IMG/VR virus record: IMGVR_UViG_3300047491_000541
Source: an uncultured virus (IMG/VR IMGVR_UViG_3300047491_000541)
Taxonomy: Duplodnaviria; Heunggongvirae; Uroviricota; Caudoviricetes
Strand: one strand, 5' to 3'
DNA length: 64,000 nt
The position numbers were made by a program, and so were the translations under genes. The notes below the pieces were generated by a model. That model was not told the DNA's origin. It ran no database searches and saw only the letters and a list, made by a program, of their open reading frames with translations. Below, one piece after another: positions 2,941 through 56,318 of the stretch; position 1 is the first letter of the stretch; the number at the start of each line of letters is the position of its first letter.

Positions 2941-3393
2941 TATGACAGAACTGTTCTACTTGGCAACACGATCACATTTTCGCATCGAAGTTCAAATCCT
3001 CAACCGTGTAGTCTCCGATGTTGTCATGCTCCGCATATCCAGCCCCCAGCAATTCCGATGGCAACGTTGATGCAGAAACCTTGTCCCTCACATTCCTCAA
3101 GCACGTCGCCCTGCCGCATATTTAGTCGCCTTGCCAGATCGCGGATGCTGATTGGATCGTCTTGCCTGTCGCGGACAATGCGAACAAGGCGTTGGAGTTT
3201 ATCTTTCACTCGCTTCGCTCCTTTCAGAAAACTCAACTTTGTCGTTCGCAACCTTACGACGGGAATATTCCATCTTCGTATGGTTCCGCGCTCGGCTATA
3301 CTCGGTGAAGAATGCGCCGATGGCAAAGCACAGATCACCCATCCAATCAAAAACATACGCCAACGGAATGAACCAACCGGCGTCCCTCAACTT

Positions 3394-3463
3394 GCGAACA
3401 ATTCGCTTCACTCTATGCCTCCTTCGCATCGCTCACTCGACAAGAGTGAGCTTGGTCGTTCGC
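3394..3463 (+). repeat. attC-like recombination site
   Basis: GCGAAC..GCTTCACTCT / AGAGTGAGC..GTTCGC imperfect palindrome with one extra base in the left arm. Confidence 0.75.
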
Positions 3464-3603
3464 CTTTATCGGCAGATGGTATTGCCCGATTGCCTTACAA
3501 ACTGGACATCCGTACCCGCTAACGTATCCTGGCACCTGGCTATACGGCACATTATCAAACGGGCAAAGGCGTTCTCCTTTGCGAGGCCGACGCTTCGGGA
3601 ATG

Positions 3604-3673
3604 GGCGAACAATGCTCTTCACTCTACGCCCTTCGCTTCGCTCACTCGGCAAGAGTGAGCTTTGTCGTTGGGA
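3604..3673 (+). repeat. attC-like recombination site
   Basis: Near-copy of 3394-3463; its R'' GGCGAAC is the exact complement of the upstream core GTTCGCC at 3458. Confidence 0.8.
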
Positions 3674-15331: not shown

Positions 15332-15685
15332 TCACTTGGTTTCGATTTCACCAGTTGTCCAGTCAATAACCACAATGCCGTGCTTTTCGAGAACAGCATT
15401 ATGGTAAAGCGCGTCGCCTTCGGTGCTGAGTTTGTTGCCTTCGGCGCGAAGTCTGCGACCTTCGGCGAGGAGTGTGTTGCCTTTGGTGATGAGGTTGCAG
15501 ATTTCGTCGAAGTGCTTGTCGCCTTCGTCGAAGTGCTTGTTGCCTTCAGCGAGAAGCTTGTTGCCTTCGACGAGAAGCGCGTCGCCTTCGACGCGGAGAT
15601 TGTCTCCTTTGGCGATGAGCGCGTTGCCAAAGTCGTGGAGCTTGTTTCGTGTTTCCCATGAGTCTTGAATTGGTTCGTGTTTCAT
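15332..15685 (-). CDS. heptad-repeat array protein 1
   Basis: 117 aa, family termini. Confidence 0.85.
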   Translation of the reverse strand: MKHEPIQDSWETRNKLHDFGNALIAKGDNLRVEGDALLVEGNKLLAEGNKHFDEGDKHFDEICNLITKGNTLLAEGRRLRAEGNKLSTEGDALYHNAVLEKHGIVVIDWTTGEIETK

Positions 15686-15717
15686 ACTACCTTCTTATCG
15701 GTTGGGTTCAGTTTGGT

Positions 15718-16284
15718 TCACTTGGTTTCGATTCCACCAGTTGTCCAGTCAATGACCGCGTCAGGACCGTGTTTTTCAATAACAGCATCACGGTAGAGAT
15801 TGTCGCCTTTTGCAATGAGCCCGTAGCCGTTGGCGTGGAGCGCGTTGCCTTTGGCAATGAGCCCGTAGCCTTTGGCGGTGAGCGCGTCGCCTTTGGCGAG
15901 GAGCACGTAGCCTTTGGCGGTGAGCTCGTCACCTTTGACAAGGAGCTTGCAACCTTTGGTAATGAGCCCGTAGCCTTTGGCAAGGAGCCTGTGACCTTTG
16001 GCAATGAGCTTATCGCCTTCGGCGTAGTGGGTGTTATTTTCGTCGATGAGCTTATCGCCTTCGGCACGAAGCTTGTTGCCTTCGGCACAGAGCTTGTAGC
16101 CTTCGGAGCGGAACTCGTCGCCTTCGGAGCGGAGCTCGTCGCCTTCGGAGCTTAATTTGTTTCCTTCGACGTAGTGGTTGCTGCTTTCATCGATGAGCTT
16201 GTCTCCTTCAACGCGGAGCCTGTTTCCTTCGACGTGTAATTCGTTGCGTGTTTTCCATGAGTCTTGAATCGTTCCGTGTTTCAT
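15718..16284 (-). CDS. heptad-repeat array protein 2
   Basis: 188 aa, family termini. Confidence 0.85.
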   Translation of the reverse strand: MKHGTIQDSWKTRNELHVEGNRLRVEGDKLIDESSNHYVEGNKLSSEGDELRSEGDEFRSEGYKLCAEGNKLRAEGDKLIDENNTHYAEGDKLIAKGHRLLAKGYGLITKGCKLLVKGDELTAKGYVLLAKGDALTAKGYGLIAKGNALHANGYGLIAKGDNLYRDAVIEKHGPDAVIDWTTGGIETK

Positions 16285-16316
16285 ACTGCCTTCTTATCGG
16301 TTGGGGCCAGTTGGAG

Positions 16317-16610
16317 TCACTTGGTTTCAATTTCACCTGTTGTCCAGTCAATGACCGCGTCAGGGCCGTGTTTTACGAGAACGGCATTGCGGTAGAGCCT
16401 GTAGCCTTTGGCGTGGAGCGTTTCGCTTTTGGCGAGGAGTCTGTAACCTTCATCGATGAGCGCGTTGCTTTTGGCAAGGAGCCTGTCGCCTTCGGAGAGG
16501 AGCCTGCAACCTTCGGTGCGAAGTCTGTTGCCCTTGGCATAGAGCTTGTCACCTTTGGCGCGGAGCTTGTTGCGTGTTTCCCATGCGTATTGAATCGGTT
16601 CGTGTCTCAT
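16317..16610 (-). CDS. heptad-repeat array protein 3
   Basis: 97 aa from MRHEP, family termini. Confidence 0.85.
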   Translation of the reverse strand: MRHEPIQYAWETRNKLRAKGDKLYAKGNRLRTEGCRLLSEGDRLLAKSNALIDEGYRLLAKSETLHAKGYRLYRNAVLVKHGPDAVIDWTTGEIETK

Positions 16611-16624
16611 CTGCTGTCTCCTTA

Positions 16625-17107
16625 TCACTTGGTTTCGATTTCACCAGTTACCCAATCGATAATCGCATCAGAACCGTGCTTTGCGTGAACGGCATCGCAG
16701 TAGAGCACGTCGCCTTCAGCGCGGTGACTGCATGCCTTTGCGCGGAGTGCATTACCTTCGGCGAGGTGTCTGCGACCTTCGGCGTGGAGTCTGTGGCCTT
16801 CGGCGTGAAGGCTGCGGCTTTTTGCAGCGAGCAATTGGCCTTTAGCGAGAAGTCTGCTGCCTTCGACACGGAGTCTACGACCTCCGACGCTGGGATTATC
16901 GCCTTCGACGTAGTGGCTGCGGATTTCGACGAATCGCTCGTCGGCTTCAGTCCTGAGCTTATTGGATTCATCGGTTAGCCGGCTGCCTTCGACGAGGATT
17001 TTGTTGGCCGCGTCGAAGTGCTTGTTGGATTCAGCGCAGAGCCTACTAGCCTCGGCGTGTAATTCGCTGCGTCTTTCCCATGCGTCTTTGATCGGTTCGT
17101 ATTTCAT
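16625..17107 (-). CDS. heptad-repeat array protein 4
   Basis: 160 aa, family termini. Confidence 0.85.
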   Translation of the reverse strand: MKYEPIKDAWERRSELHAEASRLCAESNKHFDAANKILVEGSRLTDESNKLRTEADERFVEIRSHYVEGDNPSVGGRRLRVEGSRLLAKGQLLAAKSRSLHAEGHRLHAEGRRHLAEGNALRAKACSHRAEGDVLYCDAVHAKHGSDAIIDWVTGEIETK

Positions 17108-17129
17108 AACGTCTCCTTATCAGTTGGGG

Positions 17130-17654
17130 TCACTTGGTTTCGATTTCACCGGTTGTCCAGTTGATAACCACGTCAGGACCGTGCTTTGCGTGAACGGCAC
17201 AGGTATAAAGTACCTGCCCTTCGGCACGGAGCTTAGTACCCTCGGCGTAGAGCGCGTCGCTCTCAGCGCATAGCCTGTTGCCCTCGGCGCGGAGATTGCG
17301 GCCTTTGGCGCGGAACTTGTCGCCCTCGGCAATGAGCTTGTCGCCCTCGGCGCGTAGCTTGCCGCCCTCGGCGAGGAGCCTGTTGCCCTCGGAGTGGAGC
17401 TTGGTACCTTCGGCACGGAGCTTAGTACCCTCGGCACAGAGCTTGCTGCCCTCTGCGTAGAGCCTGTTGCCCTCGGAGTGGAGCTTGGTGCCCTCGGCGC
17501 GGAGTTTGTCGCCCTTGGCATAGAGCTTGCTGCCCTCTGCGTAGAGCCTGTCGCCTTCGACGTGGGGTCTGTGAAATTCAGCAACGAGCTTGCGGCTTTT
17601 GGCGAGTAGTTCGTTGCGTCTTTCCCACGCATCTTGAATTGGTCCGTGTTTCAT
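17130..17654 (-). CDS. heptad-repeat array protein 5
   Basis: 174 aa, family termini. Confidence 0.85.
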   Translation of the reverse strand: MKHGPIQDAWERRNELLAKSRKLVAEFHRPHVEGDRLYAEGSKLYAKGDKLRAEGTKLHSEGNRLYAEGSKLCAEGTKLRAEGTKLHSEGNRLLAEGGKLRAEGDKLIAEGDKFRAKGRNLRAEGNRLCAESDALYAEGTKLRAEGQVLYTCAVHAKHGPDVVINWTTGEIETK

Positions 17655-17674
17655 GGCGTCTCCTTATCAGCTAG

Positions 17675-17968
17675 TCACTTGGTTTCGATTTCACCGGTTA
17701 TCCAGTCGATACCCACATCAGGGCCGTACTTTGCGAGAGCAGCACTACGATAAAGCCTGTCACCTTCGGCGCGGAACCCGCTACCTTCGGCGCGGAGCCT
17801 GCTACCTTCGGCGAAGTGTGCGTCGCCTTTGGCAAGGAGCCTGTTGCCCTCGGCACGGAGTCCGCAACCTTTGGCAAGGAGCTCATCGCCCTCGGCGCTG
17901 TGCTTGTCACCTTCGGCGTGTAATTCGTTGCGTGTTTTCCATATGTCTTGAATTTGCCCGTGCTTCAT
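17675..17968 (-). CDS. heptad-repeat array protein 6
   Basis: 97 aa, family termini. Confidence 0.85.
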   Translation of the reverse strand: MKHGQIQDIWKTRNELHAEGDKHSAEGDELLAKGCGLRAEGNRLLAKGDAHFAEGSRLRAEGSGFRAEGDRLYRSAALAKYGPDVGIDWITGEIETK

Positions 17969-18000
17969 GCCGTCTCCTTATCGGTTGAGTCCAGTTAGGG

Positions 18001-18483
18001 TCACTTGGTTTCAATTTCGCCAGTTATCCAGTTGATACTAGACTCAGGGCCGTACTTTGCGAGAACGGCATCGCGATAAAGCTTGCCGCCTTCGCCAATG
18101 CACTTGTTTGCTTCAACGATGAGCACGTCGCTTTTGGCGAGAAGCGCGGTGCCTTCGGCGCGGCGTTTGTAGCCTTCGGCGCGGAGTCTGCTACCTTCAG
18201 CGAGGAGATTGCAACCTTCGACGAGGAACTTGTCGCTTTCGGCACGGAGCCCTCCACCCTCGTCGATGAGACTGCACCTTCTGGCGGTGAGCACGTCGCT
18301 TTTTGCGATGAGTGCATCGCCTTCGGAGCTGAGCTTGTTGCCTTCGGCGAGGTACTCGTCGCTTTCATCGATAAGCCTCTCGCCTTCGGCGCGGGGTCCG
18401 TGAAGTTCAGCAACGAGCTTGCGGCTTTTGGCGAGTAGTTCGTTGCGTGTTTTCCATGCGTCTTGAATTGGTCCATGTTTCAT
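18001..18483 (-). CDS. heptad-repeat array protein 7
   Basis: 160 aa, family termini. Confidence 0.85.
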   Translation of the reverse strand: MKHGPIQDAWKTRNELLAKSRKLVAELHGPRAEGERLIDESDEYLAEGNKLSSEGDALIAKSDVLTARRCSLIDEGGGLRAESDKFLVEGCNLLAEGSRLRAEGYKRRAEGTALLAKSDVLIVEANKCIGEGGKLYRDAVLAKYGPESSINWITGEIETK

Positions 18484-18505
18484 ACTGTCTCCTTATCACT
18501 TGGGT

Positions 18506-18736
18506 TTAATTGGTTTCGATTCCACCAGTTGCCCAGTTGATAACCACGTCAGGACCGTGCTTTTCGAGAACAGCATCGCGGTAGAGATTGTTTCCTGCGG
18601 CGCGGAGTCTGCGGCCTTTGGCGTGAAGCGCGTCGCCTTCAGCGCAGAGTCTGCTGCCTTCGGCGAGGAGCTTGTCGCTTTCGGCGTGTACTTCGATGCG
18701 TGTTTTCCATGCGTCTTGAATTGGTTCGTGTTTCAT
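18506..18736 (-). CDS. heptad-repeat array protein 8 (shortest)
   Basis: 76 aa, family termini. Confidence 0.85.
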   Translation of the reverse strand: MKHEPIQDAWKTRIEVHAESDKLLAEGSRLCAEGDALHAKGRRLRAAGNNLYRDAVLEKHGPDVVINWATGGIETN

Positions 18737-18750
18737 CTACTGTCTCCTTG

Positions 18751-19320
18751 TCAGTTGGTTTCGATTTCACCGGTTGCCTAGTCGGTACTGGATTCAGTGG
18801 CCATGCTCTGCAACAAGAAAGCATCGCGGTAAAGCGCGTCACCTCTGGCGAGGAGTTTTTCTCCGTCAGCGCGGAGTCTGCTACCTTCAGCGTGAAGGCT
18901 GCTACCTTCGGTAAGGAGCCTGTCGCCTTCGGCGCGGAGTTTGCTACCTTCAGCACGGAGTCTGCTACCTTCGGTGTGAAGGCCACAACCTTTGACGAGG
19001 AGAGCATTGCCTTTGGCGTAGCGATTGCAGATTTCGGCGAAGTACTTGTTGGCTTCGTCGAAGCACTTGCCGCCTTCAGTGCTGAGTTTGTTGGCTTCGG
19101 CGCGGAGCCTACAACCTTCGGCGAGGTACTCGTTGCTTTCATCGATAAGCCTCTCGCCTTCGGCGAGGAGTCTGCGACCTTCGACGTGAAGGCTGCGGCT
19201 TTTGGCGAGGAGTACGTCGCCTTCGGTGTGGAGCACGTCACCTTTGGTGACGAGCGCGTTTCCTTCGGCGTATACCTCGTTTCGTATTTTCCACGCGTCT
19301 TGAATTGGTCCGTGTTTCAT
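18751..19320 (-). pseudogene. heptad-repeat array protein 9 with damaged C-terminus
   Basis: C-cap scrambled (AFLLQSMATESSTD); conserved Trp codon is TAG; in-frame ATGEIETN follows. Confidence 0.7.
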
Positions 19321-19352
19321 GGTGTCTCCTTATCGGTTGGGGCCAGTTGGAG

Positions 19353-19877
19353 TCACTTGGTTTCGATTTCGCCAATTGCCCAGTCGATGACTGCGTCAGG
19401 GCCGTGTTTTGCACGAACGGCGCAGGTGTAAAGTGCGCGTCCCTCGGCGCGGAGCTTGTCGCCCTTGGCGTATAGCTTGTTGCCCTTGGCATGGAGCTTG
19501 CTACCCTCGGAGTGGAGCTTGCTACCCTCGGAGTGAAGCTTGCTACCCTCGGAGTGAAGCTTGCCACCCTCGGCGTGGAGCCTGCCGCTTTCGGCGAGGA
19601 GCGTGTCACCTCTGATGAGGAGCTTATCTCCGTCAGCGCGGAGCGCGCTACCCTCGGAGTGGAGCTTGCCACCCTCTGCGTAGAGCCTGTCGCCCTCGGC
19701 GAGGAGCCTATCGCCTTCGGCATATAGCCTATCGCCTTCGGCGTGAAGCTTGGTACCTTCGGCGCGGAGCTTGCTGCCCTCGGCGTATAGCCTGCTGCCC
19801 TCTGCGTAGAGCCTGTCGCCTTCAGAGCGGAGCTTGGTGCGTGCTGCCCACGCTTCTTGAATCGGTTCGTGTTTCAT
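19353..19877 (-). CDS. heptad-repeat array protein 10
   Basis: 174 aa, perfect SEGSKLH tandem runs. Confidence 0.85.
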   Translation of the reverse strand: MKHEPIQEAWAARTKLRSEGDRLYAEGSRLYAEGSKLRAEGTKLHAEGDRLYAEGDRLLAEGDRLYAEGGKLHSEGSALRADGDKLLIRGDTLLAESGRLHAEGGKLHSEGSKLHSEGSKLHSEGSKLHAKGNKLYAKGDKLRAEGRALYTCAVRAKHGPDAVIDWAIGEIETK

Positions 19878-19911
19878 CTACTGCCTTCTTATCGGTTAGG
19901 GTCAGTTGGGT

Positions 19912-20379
19912 TCAGTTGGTTTCGATTTCACCGGTTATCCAGTCGATACTGGACTCAGGGCCGTACTTTACAATAACGGCATTGCGGTAGAGCTTGTTGC
20001 CTTCGTCGTGGAGTCTGCTACCCTCAGCGCGGAGTCTACGACCTTCACCGTAGTGTCTGCGACCTTCGGCGAAGTGCGTGCCGGCTTCGGCGCTGCGCCT
20101 GCTGGATTCGTCGCGGAGTCTGCTACCCTCGGAGCGGAGTCTGCTACCCTCGGCTGTGAGTGCGGGCTTATCGACCTCGGCACAGAGCTTGTTGCCCTCG
20201 GCGCGGAGCTTGTTGCCTTCGTCGTGGAGCCTGCCGGCTTCGGCGTAGAGCCTGTCACCTTCGGCGAAGCTTTTGCTGATTTCGGCGAAGTGCTTGTCGG
20301 CTTCGACGCTGAGTTTGTCGCCTTCGACGTGTAGCTCGTTGCGTGTTTTCCATGCGTCTTGAATCGGTTCGTGTTTCAT
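19912..20379 (-). CDS. heptad-repeat array protein 11
   Basis: 155 aa, family termini. Confidence 0.85.
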   Translation of the reverse strand: MKHEPIQDAWKTRNELHVEGDKLSVEADKHFAEISKSFAEGDRLYAEAGRLHDEGNKLRAEGNKLCAEVDKPALTAEGSRLRSEGSRLRDESSRRSAEAGTHFAEGRRHYGEGRRLRAEGSRLHDEGNKLYRNAVIVKYGPESSIDWITGEIETN

Positions 20380-20401
20380 GGAGACTTCTTATCAGTTAGA
20401 T

Positions 20402-20716
20402 TCAGTTGGTTTCGATTTCGCCGGTTTCCCAATCAATGACCGCAGTAGGCCCATACTTTGCGAGAACGGCAGCGCGGTAGAAATCGCTGCCTTCGACGCG
20501 GAATCGGCAACCTAAGGCGATAAGCTTGTCGCCTTCGACGAGGAGTTTGTCACCTTCGACGCGAAGCTTATCGCCTTCGACACGGAGATTGTAGCCTTCG
20601 AAGCGGAGATCATCTCCTTCAGCACGTAGCTTACCACCCGCTGCGCTGAGATTGTAGCCTGTGAAGTAGAGCTTATTGCGTGTTTTCCATGCGTCTTGAA
20701 TTGGTTCGTGTTTCAT
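20402..20716 (-). CDS. heptad-repeat array protein 12
   Basis: 104 aa, family termini. Confidence 0.85.
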   Translation of the reverse strand: MKHEPIQDAWKTRNKLYFTGYNLSAAGGKLRAEGDDLRFEGYNLRVEGDKLRVEGDKLLVEGDKLIALGCRFRVEGSDFYRAAVLAKYGPTAVIDWETGEIETN

Positions 20717-20750
20717 CTACTGCCTTCTTATAAGTTGAGTTCAGGGGTTG

Positions 20751-21212
20751 TCAGTTGGTTTCGATTTCGCCAGTTTTCCAATCAATAAATTGATTGGGGC
20801 CGTGTTTTTCAATAACAGCATCACGGTAGAGCTGGTTTCCTTTGGCGTAGAGCTTGACGTTTTTTGCGATGAGCGCGTCGCCTTTGACAAAGAGCTTGCA
20901 GCCTTTGGCGATGGACTTGTAGCCTTTGGCAAGGAGCCCGTAGCCTTTGACAAGGAGCTTGGCGCTTTCGGCACGGAGTCTATTGCCTTCGTCGCGGAGT
21001 CTGTTGCCTTCGGCGAGGTACTCGTTGCTTTCATCGATAAGCCTCTCGCCTTCGGCGAGGAACCTGTCGCCTTCGGCGTGTAGCTTGTAGCCTTCGGCAA
21101 TGAGCTCGTTGCTTTCGGCGAAGAGCTTGACGCTTTCTGCGCTGCGCTTGACGCCTTCGGCGAGTAATTCGTTGCGTCTTTCCCATGCATCTTGAATCGT
21201 TCCGTGTTTCAT
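20751..21212 (-). CDS. heptad-repeat array protein 13
   Basis: 153 aa, family termini. Confidence 0.85.
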   Translation of the reverse strand: MKHGTIQDAWERRNELLAEGVKRSAESVKLFAESNELIAEGYKLHAEGDRFLAEGERLIDESNEYLAEGNRLRDEGNRLRAESAKLLVKGYGLLAKGYKSIAKGCKLFVKGDALIAKNVKLYAKGNQLYRDAVIEKHGPNQFIDWKTGEIETN

Positions 21213-21224
21213 AACGTCTCCCTA

Positions 21225-21770
21225 TCACTTGGTTTCGATTTCACCGGTTGTCCAGTCAATGACCGCATCAGGACCGTGCTTTGCGTGAACAGCATCACGG
21301 TAGAGATTGTCGCCTTTTGCAAAGAGCCCGTAGCCTTTGGCGTAGAGCGCGTCGCCTTTGGCGAGGAGCCCGTAACCTTCGGCGAGGAGCTCGTCGCCTT
21401 TGACAAGGAGCTTGCTACCTTGGGCAACGAGTCTGTAGCCTTTGGCAAGGAGCCTGTAACCTTTGGCAATGCGCTTGTCACCCTCGGCGTAGAGCTTATA
21501 GCCTTTGGCGCGGCGCTCGTAGCCTTCGGCACGAAGCTTGTAGCCTTCGGCACGAAGCTTGTTGCCTTCGGCGCGGAATTTGTTTCCTTCTACGTGGAGC
21601 TTGTTTCCTTCGTCATAGAGCCTGTCTCCTTCGGCGCGAAGCCTGTTGCCTTCAGCGTAGTGGTTGTTGCTTTCATCGAAGAGCTTGTCGCCTTCGACGC
21701 GGAGTTTGTTCCCTTCGGCGTGTAATTCGCTTCGTGTTTCCCATGCGTCTTGAATTGATTCGTGTTTCAT
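21225..21770 (-). CDS. heptad-repeat array protein 14
   Basis: 181 aa, family termini. Confidence 0.85.
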   Translation of the reverse strand: MKHESIQDAWETRSELHAEGNKLRVEGDKLFDESNNHYAEGNRLRAEGDRLYDEGNKLHVEGNKFRAEGNKLRAEGYKLRAEGYERRAKGYKLYAEGDKRIAKGYRLLAKGYRLVAQGSKLLVKGDELLAEGYGLLAKGDALYAKGYGLFAKGDNLYRDAVHAKHGPDAVIDWTTGEIETK

Positions 21771-21779
21771 GGTGTCTCC

Positions 21780-22001
21780 TTATCGGTTCGGCGGCAGCGA
21801 TGCTCCCATGCAGTTTGGGCACACGTATCGCCAAGAATAGGTCTCGCTCGGTGAAAACAGGCCGTGATACCCGCAACCCAGACAGGTCATGCGTCGGCGA
21901 CGTGACCGCCAAACAAGCCCATCGACGGGACGGCTCATAGCGCGTCCTTCTGGGCAAAGGTTCTTCCCCGGTCCTGCGTTTGGTGCCTGTCCGATGTTCA
22001 T
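21780..22001 (-). CDS. small CxxC..CxxC zinc-ribbon-like protein (cassette-borne)
   Basis: CLGC..CPNC; GGAGGG RBS inside the attC loop. Confidence 0.55.
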   Translation of the reverse strand: MNIGQAPNAGPGKNLCPEGRAMSRPVDGLVWRSRRRRMTCLGCGYHGLFSPSETYSWRYVCPNCMGASLPPNR

Positions 22002-22034
22002 TTCCCCTCCATGAGCCGCCCGTCATGGGCAGCG
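21787..22034 (+). mobile_element. attC gene cassette inserted at an array junction
   Basis: Begins after G of GTTCGGC (21786) and ends at G of GTTAGAT (22034); removing it restores the normal junction. Confidence 0.8.
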
Positions 22035-22040
22035 TTAGAT
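21908..22040 (+). repeat. attC-like recombination site (133 bp)
   Basis: R'' GCCAAAC; arms GCCCATCGACGGGACGGCTCAT / ATGAGCCGCCCGTCATGGGC with two extrahelical bases; R' GTTAGAT. Confidence 0.85.
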
Positions 22041-22502
22041 TCACTTGGTTTCGATTTCACCAGTTTCCCAGTTGATAACCACATTAAGGCCATGTTTGCA
22101 GATCGCGGCATTGTGATAAAACCTGTCGCCTATGGCACGGATCCTGCTACCTTCGTCGAGGAATCTACGACCCTCGGTATAGAGAGTGTCGCTTTTGGCG
22201 CGAAGCCCATCGCCTTCGGCACGGAGCCTAATGCCTTCAGCGCGAAGCTTGACGCCTTCAGCGTGAAGGCTGTGGCCTTTGGTTCTGAGCTCGTCGCCTT
22301 CGGTTAGGAGTCTACGACCTTCGATGCCGAGCTCGGCGCCTCTGGCGATGAGCGCGTCGCCTTCGCCGTAGAGCCTATTGGCTTCGGCGTAGTGGGTGTT
22401 ATTTTCATCGATGAGCTTGTCGCCTTCTACGCGAAGCTTGTCGCCTTCGGCGTGGAATCCGTTGCGAATTTCCCACGCATCTTGAATCGTCTCGTGTTTC
22501 AT
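22041..22502 (-). CDS. heptad-repeat array protein 15
   Basis: 153 aa, family termini. Confidence 0.85.
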   Translation of the reverse strand: MKHETIQDAWEIRNGFHAEGDKLRVEGDKLIDENNTHYAEANRLYGEGDALIARGAELGIEGRRLLTEGDELRTKGHSLHAEGVKLRAEGIRLRAEGDGLRAKSDTLYTEGRRFLDEGSRIRAIGDRFYHNAAICKHGLNVVINWETGEIETK

Positions 22503-22530
22503 GGTGTCTCCTTATTGGTTGAGTTCGGGG

Positions 22531-22845
22531 TTACTTGGTTTCAATTTCACCTGTTGTCCAGTCGATGACTGCATCAGGGCCATACTTTGCGAGAACGGCA
22601 GCGCGGTAGAAATCGTTGCCTTCGACGCGGATCTTGTGGCCCTCGGCGATGAGCTTGGCGCCCTCGGCACGATGCTCGTCGCCTTTGGCGAGGAGCTTGT
22701 CGCCCTCGGCACGACGCTCGTCGCTTTTGGCGAGGAGCTTGTCGCCCTTGGCACAGCGCTTGAAACCCTCGTCGCGGAGCTTGACGCCCGCGGCGTAGAA
22801 TTCGTTGCGTGCTTCCCATGCATCTTTGATCGGTTCGTGTTTCAT
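22531..22845 (-). CDS. heptad-repeat array protein 16
   Basis: 104 aa, family termini. Confidence 0.85.
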   Translation of the reverse strand: MKHEPIKDAWEARNEFYAAGVKLRDEGFKRCAKGDKLLAKSDERRAEGDKLLAKGDEHRAEGAKLIAEGHKIRVEGNDFYRAAVLAKYGPDAVIDWTTGEIETK

Positions 22846-22867
22846 AACGTCTCCTTATCAGTTGGGT

Positions 22868-23434
22868 TCACTTGGTTTCGATTTCACCGGTTGTCCAGTC
22901 AATGACTACGTCATGGCCGTACTTTGCGTGAACAGCATCGCTGTAGAGATTGTCGCCTCTGGCGCGAAGCCTGTTTCCTTCGGCGAGGAGTTCGTTGCTT
23001 TCATCGATGAGCTTGTAGCCTTCAGCGTTGAGCTTGTCGCTTTCGGCGTGGAGCTTATTCCCTTCAGCGTGAAGTCTGTAACCTTCAGCGTGGAGGTTGA
23101 CGCCTTCGGCGATGCGCTTGTTGCTTTCATCGATTAGCGCGTCGCTTTTGGCGCGAATCACGTCGCCTTCGACGCGGAGCGCGTTGCATTTGGCGCGTAG
23201 TCTGCTACCTTCGGTGAGGAGTCTGCAACCTTCGGCAAGAAGCGCGTCTCCTCTGACGAGGAGCTTGTTTCCTTCGTCATAGAGCCTGTCTCCTTCGGCG
23301 CGAAGCCTGTTGCCTTCAGCGTAGTGGTTGTTGCTTTCATCGAAGAGCTTGTCGCCTTCGACGTGGAGCTTGTCGCTTTCGGCGCGTAATTCGCTGTATG
23401 TTTCCCATGCGTCTTTGATCGGTTCGTGCTTCAT
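22868..23434 (-). CDS. heptad-repeat array protein 17
   Basis: 188 aa, family termini. Confidence 0.85.
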   Translation of the reverse strand: MKHEPIKDAWETYSELRAESDKLHVEGDKLFDESNNHYAEGNRLRAEGDRLYDEGNKLLVRGDALLAEGCRLLTEGSRLRAKCNALRVEGDVIRAKSDALIDESNKRIAEGVNLHAEGYRLHAEGNKLHAESDKLNAEGYKLIDESNELLAEGNRLRARGDNLYSDAVHAKYGHDVVIDWTTGEIETK

Positions 23435-23456
23435 GGTGTCTCCTTATCGGTTGAGT

Positions 23457-23729
23457 TCAGTTGGTTTCGATTTCACCAGTTTCCCAGTTGATACTGGATT
23501 CAGGTCCGTGTTTTTCAATAACGGCATCGCGGTAGAGCTTGTCTCCGTCAGCGCGGTGTCTGCGACCTTCGGCATAAAAGCTGCTGCTTTTGGCGAGGAG
23601 ATTGTCGCCTTCGGCGTGAAGTCTGTTACCTTCGGTGACGAGCTTGTTGCCTTCGGCGCTGCGCTCGTCGCCTTTGGCGTGTAATTCGTTGCGTGTTTCC
23701 CATGCGTCTTGAATTTGCCCGTGTTTCAT
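23457..23729 (-). CDS. heptad-repeat array protein 18
   Basis: 90 aa, family termini. Confidence 0.85.
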   Translation of the reverse strand: MKHGQIQDAWETRNELHAKGDERSAEGNKLVTEGNRLHAEGDNLLAKSSSFYAEGRRHRADGDKLYRDAVIEKHGPESSINWETGEIETN

Positions 23730-23740
23730 CTACTGTCTCC

Positions 23741-24112
23741 TTATCGGTTTGGATTCAATTGGACTCCGATTTCGCCGGTTGACCAATCGATGACTGCATC
23801 AGGGCCGTGTTTTTCAATAACAGCACAGGTATAAAGTACCCGCCCTTCGGCGTGGAGCTTAGTGCCCTCGGCGTAGAGCGCGTCGCTCTCAGCTCGGAGT
23901 TTGTCACCCTCAGCGCGGCGTTTGTCCCCCTCGGCGCGAAGCTTGTCGTCCTTGACACAGAGCTTGGTACCCTTGGCACGGAGTGCGTCGCCTTCGGCGT
24001 GGAGCTTGTCACCCTCGACACAGCGCTTGAAGCCCTCGGCGCGGAGCTTGTCGCCCTCGGCGCAGCGCTTGTTGCGAATTTCCCACGCATCTTTAATCGT
24101 CTCGTGTTTCAT
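23741..24112 (-). CDS. heptad-repeat array protein 19
   Basis: 123 aa; C-terminus runs into the junction (GEIGVQLNPNR). Confidence 0.8.
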   Translation of the reverse strand: MKHETIKDAWEIRNKRCAEGDKLRAEGFKRCVEGDKLHAEGDALRAKGTKLCVKDDKLRAEGDKRRAEGDKLRAESDALYAEGTKLHAEGRVLYTCAVIEKHGPDAVIDWSTGEIGVQLNPNR

Positions 24113-24140
24113 GGTGTCTCCTTATTGGTTGAGTTCGAGG

Positions 24141-24455
24141 TCACTTGGCTTCGATTTCGCCAGTTGCCCAGTTGATACTAGACTCAGGGCCGTACTTTGC
24201 AAGAACAGCATGACGGTAGAGCCCGTCGCTTATGTCGTGGAGTCTGCAACCTTCTGCGAGGAACTTGTCGCTTCTATCGAGGAATCTGCGACCTTCGGCG
24301 GTGAGCTCGTCGCTTTTGGCGCGGAGTGCGTCGCCTTTGGCGAGGAGCTTGCATCCTTCGACGTAGAGCCTGTCACCTTCAGTGCTATGCCTGTCGCCTT
24401 CAGCGCGGAGCTTGTTGCGTGTTTCCCATGCGTCTTGAATTTGCCCGTGTTTCAT
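24141..24455 (-). CDS. heptad-repeat array protein 20
   Basis: 104 aa, family termini. Confidence 0.85.
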   Translation of the reverse strand: MKHGQIQDAWETRNKLRAEGDRHSTEGDRLYVEGCKLLAKGDALRAKSDELTAEGRRFLDRSDKFLAEGCRLHDISDGLYRHAVLAKYGPESSINWATGEIEAK

Positions 24456-24469
24456 CTACTGTCTCCTTA

Positions 24470-25045
24470 TCAGTTAGTCACTTTGGTTTCGATTTCGCCA
24501 GTTGCCCAGTTGATACTGGATTCAGGGCCGTACTTCGCACAAACAGCATCGCGGTAGAGATTGTCGCATCCGACGAGAAGCCTGTTTCCGTCAGCGAGGA
24601 GTCTGCGACCTTCGGCATGGAGCGTGTCGCTTTTGGCGATAAGCGCGTCGCCCGCAGCGCGGAGCCTGTTACCTTCGGCGAGGAGCTTGTCACCTTCAGT
24701 GCGGAGTCTGCGACCTTCGGCGAAGTACTTGTTGGCTTCATCGATGAACACGTCGCTTTTGGCGCGAAGCGCGTCGCCCGCAGTGCTGAGCCTGTCGCCT
24801 TCGGCGCGGAGTCTGCGACCTTCGCCGTTAAGTTTGCAACCTTCGGCAAGAAGCGCGTCTCCTCTGACGAGGAACTTGTCGCCCTCGGCAATGAGCTTGT
24901 CGCCTTCGGCGCGAAGCCTGTTGCCTTCAGCGTAGTGGTTGTTGCTTTCGACGAGAAGCGCGTCGCCTTCGACGCTGAGCTTGTTGCCTTCGGCGTGTAA
25001 TTCGCTGCGTCTTTCCCATGCGTCTTGAATTTGCCCGTGTTTCAT
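24470..25045 (-). CDS. heptad-repeat array protein 21
   Basis: 191 aa (188 + VTN extension). Confidence 0.85.
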   Translation of the reverse strand: MKHGQIQDAWERRSELHAEGNKLSVEGDALLVESNNHYAEGNRLRAEGDKLIAEGDKFLVRGDALLAEGCKLNGEGRRLRAEGDRLSTAGDALRAKSDVFIDEANKYFAEGRRLRTEGDKLLAEGNRLRAAGDALIAKSDTLHAEGRRLLADGNRLLVGCDNLYRDAVCAKYGPESSINWATGEIETKVTN

Positions 25046-25069
25046 CTACTGTCTCCTTATCAGTTAGAT

Positions 25070-25363
25070 TCACTTGGTTTCGATTTCGCCAGTTGCCCAG
25101 TTGATAACCGCATTAGGGCCATACTTTTCGAGAGCAGCTTTGCGGTAGAGCTTGCTTCCTTCGTCGCGGATCGCGTCGCCTCTGGCAATAAGCCTATCCC
25201 CGTCAGCACGGAGCTCGTCGCTTTTGGCGAGGAGCTCATAGCTTTTGGCGAGGAGCTTGTCGCCTTCGAAGCTGATCTTGTTGCCTTCAACACAGAGCTT
25301 GTTCCCTTTGGCGCGGAGCTTGCTGCGTGCTGCCCATGCTTCTGTGATTGGTCCATGTTTCAT
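25070..25363 (-). CDS. heptad-repeat array protein 22
   Basis: 97 aa from MKHGP. Confidence 0.85.
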   Translation of the reverse strand: MKHGPITEAWAARSKLRAKGNKLCVEGNKISFEGDKLLAKSYELLAKSDELRADGDRLIARGDAIRDEGSKLYRKAALEKYGPNAVINWATGEIETK

Positions 25364-37738: not shown

Positions 37739-37797
37739 TCCCAACAAGGCGCTCCAGTTGACTTCACTTCGTTCGCGACTGAGCTTTGCCGTTCGGC
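37739..37797 (+). repeat. attC-like site (59 bp)
   Basis: TCCCAAC AAGGCG CTCCAG..CTGAG CTTTGCC GTTCGGC; extra C in L''; R'' matches GTTGGGC at 37524. Confidence 0.85.
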
Positions 37798-37951
37798 GCA
37801 TGTGTCCTGTCAGATGCATAAAGGTGCTCCGCTTGGCATTTACGGCATTCCAACAGGTTGAGCGTGACCGATCCTTCCTTCGAGTTGTCCGCCTTCAACA
37901 CGTCGAAACGGCGACTACCAAGCGTAACCCACTCGTGGTGGCAGAAGGCAC

Positions 37952-38052
37952 GCCGAACCAAGGCTCGCAGCGCACCCAAAACCCGCGCAATAGTTGTTCT
38001 CATATTCGGTCCTTCTCAGCGGTTTTTGGGCTGCTGAAGCCCATCGTTGGCC
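37952..38052 (+). repeat. attC-like site (101 bp)
   Basis: R'' GCCGAAC exactly complements GTTCGGC at 37791; CCCAAAA/TTTTGGG inner arms; R' GTTGGCC. Confidence 0.8.
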
Positions 38053-38397
38053 TTCGCTAGTACCTGTGCTATGTCTGACTCGACCAGCGTTGTCGGGTCG
38101 TCATTGTCACGCCTATAGGCGATCTCGTCGGCGGCGCGGGATAACAAGTCCAAGAAGTCGTCCAAGCGTACGGCTTCGCTGCCACTCGACTTCACGTTGT
38201 CGAGCGTCTCCTCGTTCCCAAACTGCGCATCGGGGTTTGACGGACGAACATCCTGCACCAAATTGCGGATGTCACGCATAGCCTCCATCGGCAGATCGAA
38301 TGCCGGCTCAATCAGTTCGTAATCAGGGACGTATCCGCGTTTGGCGTTGATGTTCCACAGCCGTATGGTCGCGAGCACGATATTCTGTTCTCTGTCG

Positions 38398-38595
38398 CTA
38401 AGGTTTTTCATCGTCTTCTCCTTCCAGGAAAGCGGCCCACTTTGCTTGCCGCTGAGCTTCTTCGACGGCTTCTTCATACCGTCGCTGTCTGAAATCAGGC
38501 AGCAAAGGAGCCAAGTCACCGTATTCGTCACAAAAATGTTCCCACTCAGCATCAACCTCCGAGCCGTGTTCTGAAAACCATTCGTCAAAAGTCAT
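38398..38595 (-). CDS. small acidic hypothetical protein
   Basis: MTFDEWFSEHGSEVDAEW after GGAGG; paralog at 47.9-48.0 kb. Confidence 0.6.
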   Translation of the reverse strand: MTFDEWFSEHGSEVDAEWEHFCDEYGDLAPLLPDFRQRRYEEAVEEAQRQAKWAAFLEGEDDEKP

Positions 38596-38754
38596 ACTAA
38601 CCTCCATCAAACGGTTAGAGCGTATTCGCTACGCTCTCCGCTCATCCTTGTCGTTGGCCTTCGCTAGTACCTGTTCTATGTCTGACTCGATACCCGTTAC
38701 CGGGTCGTCATTGTCACGCCTATAGGCGATCTCGTCGGCGGCGCGGGATAACAA

Positions 38755-38806
38755 GTCCAACAAGTCGTCCGAGCGTACGGCTTCGCCGCTCAACTTCACG
38801 TTCGGC
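38755..38806 (+). repeat. attC-like site (52 bp)
   Basis: GTCCAAC..GAGCG / CGCTC..GTTCGGC; degenerate copy at 38148-38202. Confidence 0.7.
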
Positions 38807-39037
38807 GGTACATGGCACACCACCGACTTTTCATCGAGTCTGCGTGCCAGATACTCTATGCGGTCGTATGTCCAGGCATAGCCATAACACCACAGCCACA
38901 GTCCGTCATGCAGGTGAATGAGCCGCGATCCGTCTCCGTTTCGCACCACACTTCCTGGCGGGAGTTGTGCCACGTTTGCGGCAGTTACTCGCTGCCCCGG
39001 TTCAGTTGTGCCCATCAGTCCAGTCCCAGCACGAAAC

Positions 39038-39135
39038 GCCGAACAAGGCGCTGCTGCCAACATGGTGTGGAGACTCGCTTTACTTTGCATTTGGAGTCCT
39101 TTCCTCCCCGCCACACGGCGGGGCTTTGTCGGCCG
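39038..39135 (+). repeat. attC-like site (degenerate R'), paralog of 47111
   Basis: R'' GCCGAAC complements GTTCGGC at 38800; aaggcgctgctgccaacat..ctttgcatttggagtcctttcc shared with 47111-47205. Confidence 0.65.
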
Positions 39136-39597
39136 GCAGAAAGTACCGATACTTTGCCAACGCTTCGCCTTCCGGCACATATCCGACCCTCCGCCCACGA
39201 ACAAGTTCACGAAGTGGCGTGATGAACTCAGTCGTGTACGGATACGACCCGTTCGCAAACGACGGTATGACGTTTTGCGGCCCGATTGCCGCATAAAAAG
39301 ACTCCATGTCTACTTCTACAAATGCGGTCATCGAACTACCTCATCTTTGTCGTTTGGTCCATATAGATTTCCTGAAGCTTCCCAGCATCCCAAATCTTGT
39401 GAAGTGTCCACATAACTCAGCTCCCTTTCCGTTTCTTCACTACAATCCGGTATCGCTCCGGGACACTCTCCGGCGATGCCAATCCCGTCCGCTGCACGTA
39501 TCGGTAAATTCGTTCGGCATGGGCGTGTCCACGCTTCTTCCGCTGTCTAGCACTTGCGTCTTTCACGATTTTACCGTGGAGCCTCCCTATCAGACCA

Positions 39598-39984
39598 TTA
39601 GACCAGCTCTGCGACGAGCTTGGTCGTGATCTTGCCAGCGCAGATCGTGGTCGTGGTCGCCTTGATCGCCGCAATGGCCTCTGCCGCCTTCGCCTTCAGG
39701 CCATCAACGAGGGCCTCGTCCGCCGTCACAGCCTCACGAACTAGGGCGTCCACCGTGACGCCATTGAGCTTCGAGAGAGCCGCAGCCAACAGGAGCCACG
39801 GGTCCGCCTTCGCCACGATTGCCGACTCGTAGTCATCGCCCTTCTTGAGCGAACCCGTGATCTTGACCGTGAAAGACACAGGATACTCACCGGCTTTCAC
39901 ATTCGCCCCGGCTGCCTTCATCGCCGTATCCTTGATGACCTTCGCCAGAGCAACCACTTCCACGCTTTCCATTGCCTTACTCAT
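39598..39984 (-). CDS. Ala/Lys-rich hypothetical protein
   Basis: ORF from MSKAMES downstream of a promoter motif. Confidence 0.7.
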   Translation of the reverse strand: MSKAMESVEVVALAKVIKDTAMKAAGANVKAGEYPVSFTVKITGSLKKGDDYESAIVAKADPWLLLAAALSKLNGVTVDALVREAVTADEALVDGLKAKAAEAIAAIKATTTTICAGKITTKLVAELV

Positions 39985-40028
39985 AACCGTCTCTCTCTTG
40001 TTGTTTGACTTAATCCCCTTACACCCAT

Positions 40029-40054
40029 ACATTACCGGAATCCAGTCAGAATAA
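40029..40054 (-). promoter_or_regulatory. conserved phage promoter-like motif
   Basis: TTATTC-N12-GGTAATGT. Confidence 0.7.
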
Positions 40055-40127
40055 GGAATAAAAATGAAAAATCGGCAGCCCATCAAAGCCTCCGAACTTA
40101 TTCACCATCAAGCACTTACGTCATTCA

Positions 40128-40610
40128 TCAGACGGAATCAGCCACATTGAGCGATATTCCTCTCATAAGAGATGGTTTTCGACGAGCTGGTTTTCGTTCT
40201 CCGACGGCAAACCGGATTTCATATATCCGTCTTGGATCGAGCCGTTTGATCGTATCTGAAACAGTCTCCCGGAATTGCTCTTGTCGCATCTCCTTGAACA
40301 GCCTCTCGTCCCCAATGTCTTGTTTGCCTCTCCCAACATCGCCATAAACGAAGATGAACTCGTGAGCATTTTCTCGAACTAGAGTCGGCTCCTTGAACTT
40401 GAAAGCCTTTCCATTGATCGTCAAAATCAGTTCACCAGCAAAGACATCTCGATACACTTCATCTATATAACCAGAAACTTTCTTTCCTGTCTCCGCATGA
40501 ATGAATGATACCATCCGATGAAGCATTCTATAAACAACATACCGATCACTTCGTGATGAATGCGATGTTTTGAATAAGCCTGCAGGTATTTCCAATTCAG
40601 GTTCCTTCAT
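40128..40610 (-). CDS. hypothetical protein
   Basis: 160 aa, AAGGA RBS. Confidence 0.65.
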   Translation of the reverse strand: MKEPELEIPAGLFKTSHSSRSDRYVVYRMLHRMVSFIHAETGKKVSGYIDEVYRDVFAGELILTINGKAFKFKEPTLVRENAHEFIFVYGDVGRGKQDIGDERLFKEMRQEQFRETVSDTIKRLDPRRIYEIRFAVGERKPARRKPSLMRGISLNVADSV

Positions 40611-40689
40611 ATCTAATTCCTTTCTTCCGTATAAATAGCACGATACTGAATCGCCGTCAAGCCCCGACCCTAGAGATGTTTACAGGAAA

Positions 40690-41667
40690 TCAATCTGAAC
40701 AAGCTCTCTGCATCCGCTTCAGATACTCCGCCAGCCCCTCCCGCCACGGCATGGGCGCAGTGCCGAGCAGCGCGGTGATCTTGTCCTTGGACAGGACCGA
40801 ATAGGCGGGGCGCCGCGCCCGCGTGGGATAGGCCGCCGTGTCGCACGGCTCGATGCGGCAGGTGCCCGGAACCATGCCCAGCCGCCGTCCCTCCCCGGCG
40901 ATGGCCGAGGCAAATTCATACCAGGTTGTTTCGCCGCCGTCGGTGACATGGTAGATGCCGGAAGCATCGGGAAAGCGGGTGATGAGCGCCAGGATCACGG
41001 CGCAGAGCGAGGTGACGCGGGTAGGCGTGCCAAACTGGTCTGCGACCACCTGGATGCGTTCCCGCTCACGCATCAGGCGCAGCATCGTATGGACGAAGTT
41101 GCCGCCGTGGCGCCCGTAGAGCCATGCGGTGCGCAGAATGATCGCGCCGGGACAAGCCTCCAGAACCAGTCGCTCGCCGTCCGCCTTGGTCTGCGCATAG
41201 ACGCCGATTGGGCAGACGAGATCATCCTCGACGTACGGACGGCGCCCTGTACCGTCAAAGACATAGTCCGTCGAGAGGTGGATCAGCCGCGCGCCGCAGG
41301 CGGTTGCGATCATCGCGCAATTGGCCGCGCCTTGAGCATTCAGCCGACGCGCCTGATCGGAATCATCCTCCGCCCGGTCGACCGCCGTGTAGGCGGCCGC
41401 GTTCACGACCCAGTCAATCCGCCGTCCCGCCGCAAACGCCCGCAGCGCCGACGCATCGCCGATATCGCATTCGCGATCCGTCCCCACGCAGGGCCGCCCG
41501 GCGGCGGCCAGCGTCTCGGTCAGCTCGCGCCCCAGCATCCCTAGGCAGCCGACCACCCACACCGCCGCCGGTTTGGCACGCGCTTCCGCGATGGATGCCG
41601 CACGGCGGCGCTTTACAAGGTCTTGCATCATGTCTATCAGTGTCATTTGTTCCTCCATGCCAGACAC
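40690..41667 (-). CDS. rfbD: dTDP-4-dehydrorhamnose reductase with foreign N-terminal extension
   Basis: GCLGMLG, NAAAYTAVD, HLSTDYVFDG, YAQTK, LRTAWLYG, VADQFGTPT, RRPAYSVL. Confidence 0.93.
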   Translation of the reverse strand: MSGMEEQMTLIDMMQDLVKRRRAASIAEARAKPAAVWVVGCLGMLGRELTETLAAAGRPCVGTDRECDIGDASALRAFAAGRRIDWVVNAAAYTAVDRAEDDSDQARRLNAQGAANCAMIATACGARLIHLSTDYVFDGTGRRPYVEDDLVCPIGVYAQTKADGERLVLEACPGAIILRTAWLYGRHGGNFVHTMLRLMRERERIQVVADQFGTPTRVTSLCAVILALITRFPDASGIYHVTDGGETTWYEFASAIAGEGRRLGMVPGTCRIEPCDTAAYPTRARRPAYSVLSKDKITALLGTAPMPWREGLAEYLKRMQRACSD

Positions 41668-41725
41668 CCAACAAATGGCGTTAGCCTACTTCGCTTCGCT
41701 CCGAGGCTGCGCCCCGTTGTTGGCT
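41666..41725 (+). repeat. attC-like site (60 bp)
   Basis: ACCCAAC..GGCGTTAGCCT / AGGCTGCGCC..GTTGGCT with CGCTTCGCT loop. Confidence 0.8.
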
Positions 41726-43103: not shown

Positions 43104-43141
43104 CTACTATCTCCACCCGACCTTATCGTCTGTCATTAAGT

Positions 43142-56308: not shown

Positions 56309-56318
56309 AATTTATATT

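Follow-up and report, generated by a model that had tools for sequence, protein, structure and literature searches.

How did a 248-bp segment with the look of an integron cassette come to lie in one junction of an array of paralogous phage genes? The question is raised by IMG/VR record IMGVR_UViG_3300047491_000541, a stretch of 64,000 nt (hereafter the window) from an uncultured virus of the Caudoviricetes, in which 22 heptad-repeat genes stand in tandem and a single junction is split by this segment. An initial annotation of the window, made from the sequence alone, had proposed that a cassette ending in an attC site was inserted there site-specifically, at a GTT. Our results confirm the observation and support this reading. 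The explanation that we prefer, with a probability of about 75%, is a real insertion of an integron-type cassette, in which its attC recombined with the GTT of the junction as a secondary (attG-type) site. The mechanism would be a known one, since Loot et al. (bioRxiv 10.1101/2022.09.11.507474) describe, in the available part of their preprint, integrase-driven insertion of attC cassettes at GWT sites in genomes. It would here be found in a new setting, carried by an unusual and apparently phage-restricted family of mini-cassettes.

Insertion at an array junction

The array has 21 junctions, of which 20 measure 11–41 nt and one measures 270 nt. When all of them were compared, 1 of the 21 carried an insert, with its boundaries at the GTT as the initial annotation had claimed; the split junction (21771–22040) and the intact junction used for comparison (25046–25069) also read as described there. 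Removal of positions 21787–22034 had been predicted to restore the junction, and this proved correct. Excision of these 248 nt leaves GGTGTCTCCTTATCGGTTAGAT, a normal junction of 22 nt, a length class to which four other junctions also belong. As read from the junction listing, the restored junction equals the junction at 23435–23456 at 20 of 22 positions, while the junctions at 20380–20401 and 25046–25069 share the whole of its right half.

GTT is found at either end of the insert, which leaves the breakpoint ambiguous within these 3 nt, as a G|TT crossover predicts. Apart from this GTT, insert and junction have no sequence in common. The G of the target GTT is G21786, and in the restored target the GTT lies within a perfect GTTRRRY core. 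Among the 21 junction contexts, GTT occurs in 17 and the full GTTRRRY in 11, counts that refer to paralogous copies and not to independent events. The proposal that the junction acted as an attI- or attG-like target is supported, with one departure. The restored junction has the GWT of attG sites at the cleavage point, but the CRGM motif expected at +6 to +9, which stands to the right of the Escherichia coli hotspots in the available part of the preprint (bioRxiv 10.1101/2022.09.11.507474), is replaced here by TTCA.

One might argue that no insertion took place, and that the 248 bp are an ancestral intergenic gene left amid the expansion of the array, or an assembly chimera. The array is repetitive, with a periodicity of 21 nt, which makes misassembly conceivable. 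Moreover, an empty-site allele was not recovered from the contigs of three sequencing runs (contigs drop rare variants), and no close relative without the insert was found. However, 20 of the 21 paralogous junctions lack the insert, and the halves that flank it rejoin into a standard junction. In natural populations, a 405-nt contig spanning 21670–22074 was recovered with 0 differences in each of three runs from two studies, with both insert ends bridged and a depth like that of the unique flanks. The hairpin of the insert, furthermore, belongs to a multi-copy mobile family that is seen elsewhere. An origin without insertion is thus very improbable. The joints 21770>22041 and 21788>22040, both of which bypass the insert, were considered as empty sites and rejected; they show 14–19 differences and derive from paralogous junctions.

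The same samples contain other contigs that match the window only from 21908 to 22036. Outside these limits they are different, and inside they include variants with a short loop. Hence, R'' and the GTT of R' are independently marked as the ends of the element. By sequencing depth, the cargo is single-copy and the attC arms are multi-copy in these samples.

Anatomy of the attC site

The cassette consists of a 121-bp cargo (21787–21907) followed by the attC site (Table 1), with the G at 22034 as its closing base. According to the available part of PMC5027507, the core consensus of attC sites is RYYYAAC for R'' and GTTRRRY for R'. The R' of the window site, GTTAGAT, is a perfect GTTRRRY, and its R'', GCCAAAC, agrees with RYYYAAC at 6 of 7 positions, the fourth base being A and not Y. 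A folded attC comprises an R box, an unpaired central spacer, an L box, 2–3 extrahelical bases and a terminal structure that varies. We scanned for the layout of a 7-bp R box, 5 unpaired bases, 3 bp, a bulge, 6 bp, a second bulge and further pairs. In its strict form, applied to both strands of the window (128 kb), the window site was the sole 15/15 match. As a positive control, the scan found the aadA1 attC at 13475–13534 of In2 of plasmid R100 with identical offsets, and with the bulged C and A on the top strand as in the window site. Six paired bases separate the two extrahelical bases, 21923 and 21930.

A fixed canonical layout gave 2 plus-strand and 0 minus-strand matches at 12/12 in the window, against 0.0 and 0.03 in 30 Markov shuffles. 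At 10/12 or better, the counts were 10 plus and 1 minus in the window and 5 plus and 4 minus in R100 (50 kb); this lower threshold is noisy and we do not rely on it. Both strands fold into a stem with two single-base bulges (−26.7 and −24.1 kcal/mol; z = −2.0 and −2.45), energies that are only modestly unusual, given the length of the loop. Scanning the window for hairpins in general by their energy did not discriminate (21 plus versus 21 minus matches). In the minus-strand fold, the bulged T and G lie on the 3' arm, opposite the bottom-strand 5'-AAC-3'. Extrahelical bases in this position mark the recombinogenic bottom strand (PMC5027507, available part). The scan, the folds and the layout identical to that of aadA1 together bear out the description of the site as a textbook attC with two extrahelical bases.

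Comparison with known sites gives a similar picture. All layout parameters are identical to those of the aadA1 attC. By our own count, the bottom-strand G and T bulges are at positions 16 and 23, and the corresponding bases of attCaadA7 are named G16 and T23 in the part of PMC5027507 available to us, where the numbering may differ. At 133 nt, the window site equals the length given there for VCR2 of the Vibrio VCR repeats. In contrast, it has no sequence similarity to aadA1, aadA2 or VCR sites beyond the core motifs, and unlike them it has a 72-nt loop with a bottom-strand ribosome-binding site (RBS) and start codon.

The outer core motif links the hairpin to the left end of the insert. Of the 7 bases of R'', 6 are complementary to GTTCGGC, with which the insert begins, as the initial annotation had stated, but only 4 to the downstream GTTAGAT. 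This is what an insertion by attC recombination would be expected to produce. The bottom (minus) strand of the attC would fold into a bulged hairpin, in which an integron-integrase-type tyrosine recombinase would cut the AAC between A and C, equivalent to G|TT on the top strand. Strand exchange with the GTT of the junction's GTTAGAT core, serving as a secondary attG-type site, would yield the product G|TTCGGC...cassette...G|TTAGAT, with the target GTT on both sides. R' would become a hybrid in this process, and hence the mismatch between R'' and R'.

The loop itself contains an internal GTTTGGT that can pair with all 7 bases of R'', with one G–T wobble. It may be an R' left over from an ancestral site that was shorter. 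Ahead of it stands a degenerate 3'-arm copy (CCCCGGTCCTGC), and the long-loop hairpin may be the product of two fused sites. Three proteins, P0001–P0003, imply the same long loop as that of the window hairpin.

A mobile family of cassettes

Relatives of the element were sought with a 20-nt pattern from the 5' arm of the hairpin. The pattern matched 41 metagenome loci, of which 13 are true relatives (L003, L005, L010, L012, L016, L020, L023, L028, L029, L030, L033, L037 and L039) and 28 arose by chance; a further relative is found in the viral contig L001. Both arms are kept around a shorter loop in 11 relatives, which have 10 distinct right flanks, all starting at GTT. The conserved sequence thus ends at the G|TT of R', and the neighbours vary. 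This is clearest in L012, L030, L033 and L037, which have a common cargo and hairpin but four different right flanks that diverge right after GCGTT. On the left side, L033 and L037 diverge just before GTTGGCA, the exact complement of their R'' TGCCAAC.

An exact complement of R'' also lies upstream in other relatives, at 146 nt in L005, 158 nt in L020 and 152 nt in L029, compared to 145 nt in L033 and L037. These four cassettes carry four different R'' sequences. A given 7-mer is expected about once per 16 kb, so that this recurrence is far beyond chance. The equivalent in the window, with 6 of 7 matches at 122 nt, is the left end of the insert. In other words, R'' complements the first bases of its own cassette, as it should if R' is rebuilt on circularisation. 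The lengths of the units are similar, 229–242 bp in the relatives and 229–248 bp when the window is included. Their left contexts are ordinary intergenic DNA without hairpins, a few bases from the Shine-Dalgarno sequence of the next gene. The units are accordingly cassettes that stand alone at secondary GTT sites, in six distinct contexts, and the six target sites that we reconstructed for the family all read GTTR. The claim of site-specific integration is therefore well supported, by the attC layout, by homology limits at the GTT and R'', and by R'' sequences that complement cassette starts; each prediction of integron-type integration open to testing was borne out.

The contigs that carry relatives are phage-like, and encode a Bet/RecT annealing protein, an exonuclease, a ParB-like protein, a DNA methyltransferase, endonuclease VII, HNH endonucleases and an RNA ligase. 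A pattern search of 185,579 prokaryote species, each represented by one genome, gave 27 matches, none of them with the rest of the hairpin. A pattern specific to the loop of the long-loop variant had no match among viral contigs. A match of the 3'-arm pattern in a 186-kb viral contig (L043) was dismissed as chance; it lies inside a coding region.

The nearest phage-specific alternative would be that the hairpin, Shine-Dalgarno sequence and start codon form a regulatory module that is moved by homologous or illegitimate recombination, without an integron-type recombinase. Such shuffling of units between conserved motifs has been proposed for the hyperplastic regions of T4-type phages, where promoter-early stem-loops (PeSLs) combine a stem-loop with a promoter, a Shine-Dalgarno sequence and a start codon, and form mini-circles (Comeau et al., 2014; PMC4122927, available part). 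The resemblance extends to repeated intergenic stem-loops beside small ORFans in plastic regions of a large phage, and to units that seem to travel as small circles. With gp30.3, an NAD-dependent ligase, CobT/AAA and Dam, the window has the look of a large phage of the T4 type, and the related contigs encode Bet/RecT annealing proteins and exonucleases. Furthermore, L016, L023 and L001 (at 3001–3060) retain the 5' arm only and break inside the loop, beside GTCTCCTT, a conserved motif that is also present in the array junctions.

In the available part of PMC4122927, however, PeSLs hold an early promoter and their exchange is thought to be mainly homologous. In the window element, we found no such promoter (0 sigma-70-like promoters in 21500–22300) and breakpoints that follow attC rules. 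Complete copies break exactly at the GTT in front of the 10 right flanks, and the outer bases of R'' covary with the first bases of the cassette, a pattern not expected from homologous exchange. The bulges are laid out as in a true attC, and the GTT is all that insert and junction have in common. We consider PeSL-like shuffling unlikely as the origin of the insert. The breaks in the loop of the half-sites point to a second kind of rearrangement that acts on these elements and does not take place at GTT. In these three half-sites, the 3' arm is replaced and the break adjoins GTCTCCTT, which is a complement of the Shine-Dalgarno sequence.

Companion hairpins in the window

The initial annotation had regarded the insert as a link between two systems, and the second system is real. 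The window holds about 20 short attC-like hairpins, on the plus strand only, of about 60–80 nt each. They have the order R'' (nnSnAAC), AAGGC, 3 bp, a bulge, 6 bp, a bulged A, a loop containing CGCTTCGC, a stem, TTTGTC and GTTCGSC. In 10 aligned members, 87.9% of the cells pair, with changes on both sides at 10 of 16 pairs. Covariation was 0.479, compared to 0.157 in shuffles (0 of 500 reached the observed value) and at most 0.14 for slid partners.

From these 10 sequences we built a covariance model, R1. At E up to 1, it gave 23 plus-strand matches in the window, and on the minus strand only the reverse of two near-palindromic training sites. Elsewhere, its only matches in 76 kb were the attC sites of aadA1 in R100 (40.2 bits) and of aadA2 in another plasmid (39.5 bits). 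The dfrA15, dfrA12 and gcuF sites were missed, such that 2 of 5 expected class 1 attC sites were found. Similar to the short family, the aadA1 attC (R100 13475–13534) has CGCTTCGC in its loop, with GAA on the bottom strand, which there reads GCGAAGC. The oligonucleotide d(GCGAAGC) forms an unusually stable DNA mini-hairpin.

Three short sites form a mini-array, in which the R'' of sites 2 and 3 is the exact complement of the preceding R', whereas their own R' is matched at 6 of 7 and 4 of 7 positions. The units between these sites are too small for ordinary genes. GTTCGGC, the left end of the insert, is also the commonest R' of the short family, and in L029, L028 and L020 short and long sites occur together on one strand. 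A 139-nt partial duplication of a gene end (38044–38182 and 38651–38789, 93% identity) has its start precisely at CGTTGGCC, behind two attC-like sites that differ from each other; both copies begin exactly at the GTT of those two sites. A second partial duplication likewise involves a gene end (38467–38606 and 47898–48037, 83% identity). In the site-rich region, a GGCCAGCCGAGGCTGACCG hairpin is repeated at 46229, 50140, 50883 and 51212 (family D20), together with gene starts of the CTTCTTCATGGTC type, and repeats D14–D16 span 46136–51220. These repeats suggest that the cassette-rich region holds a small family of paralogous genes.

These clusters resemble the attC clusters without an integron integrase (CALINs) of phages (Qi et al., 2023; PMC9892861, available part). 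In both cases, attC sites occur without an integrase in virulent or uncharacterised phages, and the regions at 37–52 kb and 3.2–3.7 kb of the window fit this pattern. Yet, the CALINs in that study are IntegronFinder arrays in isolated phages, and its available part describes neither a resolved insertion with internal empty-site comparators nor a hairpin family across unrelated uncultured phages. The window sites, moreover, are all antisense to genes. The link between two systems is only partly upheld, as the companion family exists but the array seems a passive target and not a partner system.

Which recombinase?

Several observations weigh against an integron-type insertion, in addition to the missing empty-site allele, the half-sites broken in the loop and the one deviating base of R''. 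The R1 model gives the long window site only 9 bits, although this model was built from the short family. Among neighbouring short sites within 500 nt, the preceding R' was the better match in 5 cases, tied in 1 and worse in 3. Contrary to classical cassettes, the open reading frame (ORF) of this one is on the bottom strand, with its start inside the attC. The enzyme is missing from the searched sequences. Pfam Phage_integrase had no match among 125 minus-strand ORFs of the window, and tblastn with IntI1 and two phage tyrosine recombinases gave no match with E below 0.7 in the window and 14 related loci. Likewise, none of 11 viral records with companion sites, of which 5 are at least 99% complete, encodes an integron integrase above the cut-off. 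The 64-kb window is therefore no complete integron, with intI beside its cassettes.

An enzyme-less window fits previous work, however. Integrase-less attC clusters occur in phages, and 5 of 6 phage-borne attC sites nevertheless recombined with IntI1 (Qi et al., 2023; PMC9892861, available part), while integrases insert cassettes at GWT sites (bioRxiv 10.1101/2022.09.11.507474, available part). The window insert also has much in common with the attC × attG products and single attC sites lacking integron integrases (SALINs) described in the available part of this preprint. It is a single attC cassette away from attI and an integrase, with a G|TT crossover (consensus GWT), an intergenic position in which read-through expression is possible, and an R box, L box, unpaired spacer and two extrahelical bases. 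It differs in that it lies in a phage genome and not in a bacterial chromosome, in its tiny size (248 bp), and in its bottom-strand ORF that starts in the hairpin loop.

Alternatively, the insert might be mobile as a folded single-strand hairpin but have been moved by other machinery, either a phage Xer-like recombinase other than IntI or an HUH transposase of the IS200/IS605 type acting in trans, in which case the likeness to attC would be convergent. Besides the 0 of 11 integron integrases in the viral records, and the absence of the family among the 27 candidate matches from prokaryote genomes, one virus lends this idea some support. Genome G001 (IMGVR_UViG_3300035670_000247; 57.9 kb) is the only complete viral genome in which a relative was found. 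Of its two Xer-like tyrosine recombinases, one is encoded about 3 kb from the element. Both scored 17–24 bits on the NCBIfam integron-integrase model, far below its cut-off of 265. Between its two matched stretches, the recombinase at 55638–56615 (minus strand) carries about 70 inserted aa, and attC-like sites at 53990–54092 and 54655–54726 lie 1–3 kb from it.

Conversely, the layout of R box, spacer, L box and two bulges is specific to integrase substrates and is matched in the window position for position, and the companion model R1 recognizes the aadA attC sites. No HUH transposase was found in Pfam or PHROG scans. Genome G001 and the window have no proteins in common, and a search for relatives of the G001 recombinase in viral contigs returned only itself. 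Other machinery is in our view improbable, and insertion by an integron-type recombinase remains the better account of the locus.

The cassette gene and a possible phage mini-cassette system

The small gene with CxxC..CxxC that the initial annotation placed in the cassette is present, but it is on the minus strand, starts in the loop and ends outside the cassette. Its GGAGGGG and ATG are within the hairpin loop, the attC encodes residues 1–30, and the stop codon is reached in the junction, two codons past the cassette end. The classical order of a promoterless top-strand ORF, expressed from Pc and followed by an attC, is thus not found. Across the family, genes were annotated in 8 contigs, and in all 8 the element has its top strand opposite to them. 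The stop codon is absent inside the cassette in the window, L020 and L029, where the ORF ends in the flank. In the short-loop relatives, the loop has AAGGAGA and an ATG giving MTTRKRAMSRPVDGLV, with the cargo in frame after it. Similarly, P0001–P0003 share the N-terminal 30 aa of the window ORF, the part encoded by the hairpin, and diverge afterwards.

The ORF as a whole had no Pfam match, residues 30–73 had no homologue in our searches, and an exact 29-mer of the cargo was not found in viral contigs. ESM Atlas leads for the cargo were generic small zinc fingers only (0.92–0.93). Placed on the bottom strand in the same direction as the phage genes, and with its RBS and start in the unpaired loop, this putative zinc-ribbon ORF could be read from the array transcript, ending at a TAA that overlaps the next Shine-Dalgarno sequence.

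A tentative, and at present rather doubtful, extension of these results is that the cassettes are no bacterial strays but a system adapted to phages. Mini-cassettes of 230–250 bp, with the attC bottom strand as sense strand, might use the loop to provide RBS, start codon and a common N-terminal leader (MTTRKRAMSRPVDGLV or MNIGQ...MSRPVDGLV) to tiny proteins of various kinds that are often rich in Cys, and might move among unrelated phages at GTT sites just upstream of Shine-Dalgarno sequences. The recombinase of such a system might be other than a canonical IntI, either a phage Xer-like enzyme or one borrowed from the host. If true, phages would be a cassette ecosystem in their own right, in which orientation and expression follow separate rules.

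Insertion at attG sites has until now been known mostly from laboratory assays, or deduced from isolated attC sites in bacterial genomes. The window offers a natural event in a phage, resolved to the base, for which 20 paralogous junctions are built-in empty-site comparators, and the same cassette family occurs in at least 6 insertion contexts. Integron-type recombination would thus shape phage genomes outside integrons. The pool of mini-cassettes seems confined to phages, as judged by the pattern used on the prokaryote genomes, in which none was found. For classical cassettes, the available parts of the studies cited here describe no design like theirs, in which the gene is reversed and the hairpin loop holds the translation signals. 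Together, the hairpin and the 22-nt target are defined substrates for testing integrases on phage DNA.

Table 1. Positions of the insert, its target and other features of the window.
Feature	Position	Strand	Basis or remark
Tandem array of 22 paralogous heptad-repeat genes	15332..25363	-	ORFs, repeat families, alignment, gene/junction table
Array gene, 181 aa, directly downstream of the insert by transcription	21225..21770	-	ORF list, junction table
Left half of split junction, GGTGTCTCCTTATCGG	21771..21786		Sequence, junction table
Cassette ORF, 73 aa, CxxC-x19-CxxC	21780..22001	-	ORF list
Left hybrid core GTTCGGC (target G plus first six bases of cassette)	21786..21792	+	Complement matches R'' 6/7
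Cassette, 248 bp, starts TTCGGC, ends ...CAGCG	21787..22034	+ (top)	Removal restores junction; relatives 229–242 bp
attC site, 133 nt	21908..22040	+	Layout scan 15/15, DNA folds, aadA1 parameters, homology limits 21908/22036 in other copies
R'' GCCAAAC	21908–21914	+	Followed by spacer AAG
5' arm CCCAT(C)GACGGG(A)CGGCTCAT	21918–21938	+	
First extrahelical base, C top/G bottom, position 16 from outer R'' end	21923	+	Scan, folds
Second extrahelical base, A top/T bottom, position 23	21930	+	Scan, folds
Hairpin loop, 72 nt	21939–22010	+	
Internal GTTTGGT in loop	21978..21984	+	Pairs with R''
3' arm ATGAGCCG-CCCGTC-ATGGG	22011–22029	+	Followed by spacer CAGC
R' GTTAGAT	22034–22040	+	
Right half of split junction, TTAGAT	22035..22040		Followed by stop codon of gene 22041–22502
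Array gene, 153 aa, directly upstream of the insert by transcription	22041..22502	-	ORF list, junction table
Mini-array of three short sites	3179–3250, 3393–3464, 3604–3673 (3179..3673)	+	Spacers ~140 nt
Region rich in short sites	37739..52296	+	R1 model, covariation
Example short sites	37739–37797, 38602–38659, 38755–38806, 41666–41725, 47111–47205, 50479–50538, 51696–51774, 51937–52009, 52221–52296	+	
Copies of 47-nt motif (family D13)	5–51, 5186, 13763, 25655, 30424, 34057, 40016, 54439		

The array and the surrounding phage genome

The array proteins have a conserved N-terminus, MKHEPIQDAW, and a conserved C-terminus, VIDWTTGEIETK. They are 76–191 aa long and consist of xEGxKLx units of 21 nt, with a middle part that varies in length. 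No Pfam family matched them. On its minus strand, the left half of the split junction contains the Shine-Dalgarno sequence of the gene at 21225–21770 and the TAA (21780–21782) that ends the cassette ORF. A profile search with the array returned one relative among viral contigs (L077), a single-copy homologue in a contig that is otherwise dissimilar to the window. One diverged copy of the array gene lies 17 kb off, at 42480–43103.

The genes of the window are almost throughout on the minus strand. Pfam matches include T4 gp30.3, an NAD-dependent DNA ligase, CobT/VWA, AAA, Dam and N4/N6 methylases, and dTDP-sugar enzymes, a gene content that points to a piece of a large uncultured phage, T4-like in look. 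The DNA of the window had no match among 50,697 phage records, and a search for relatives through the AAA protein gave distant cyanophage matches only. The stretch was found in lake and freshwater metagenomes of the two studies. A 47-nt motif (...CATACATTACCGRAA...GAATAAGRAA..., family D13) occurs in 8 copies ahead of blocks of minus-strand genes, and is probably a phage promoter or regulatory site.

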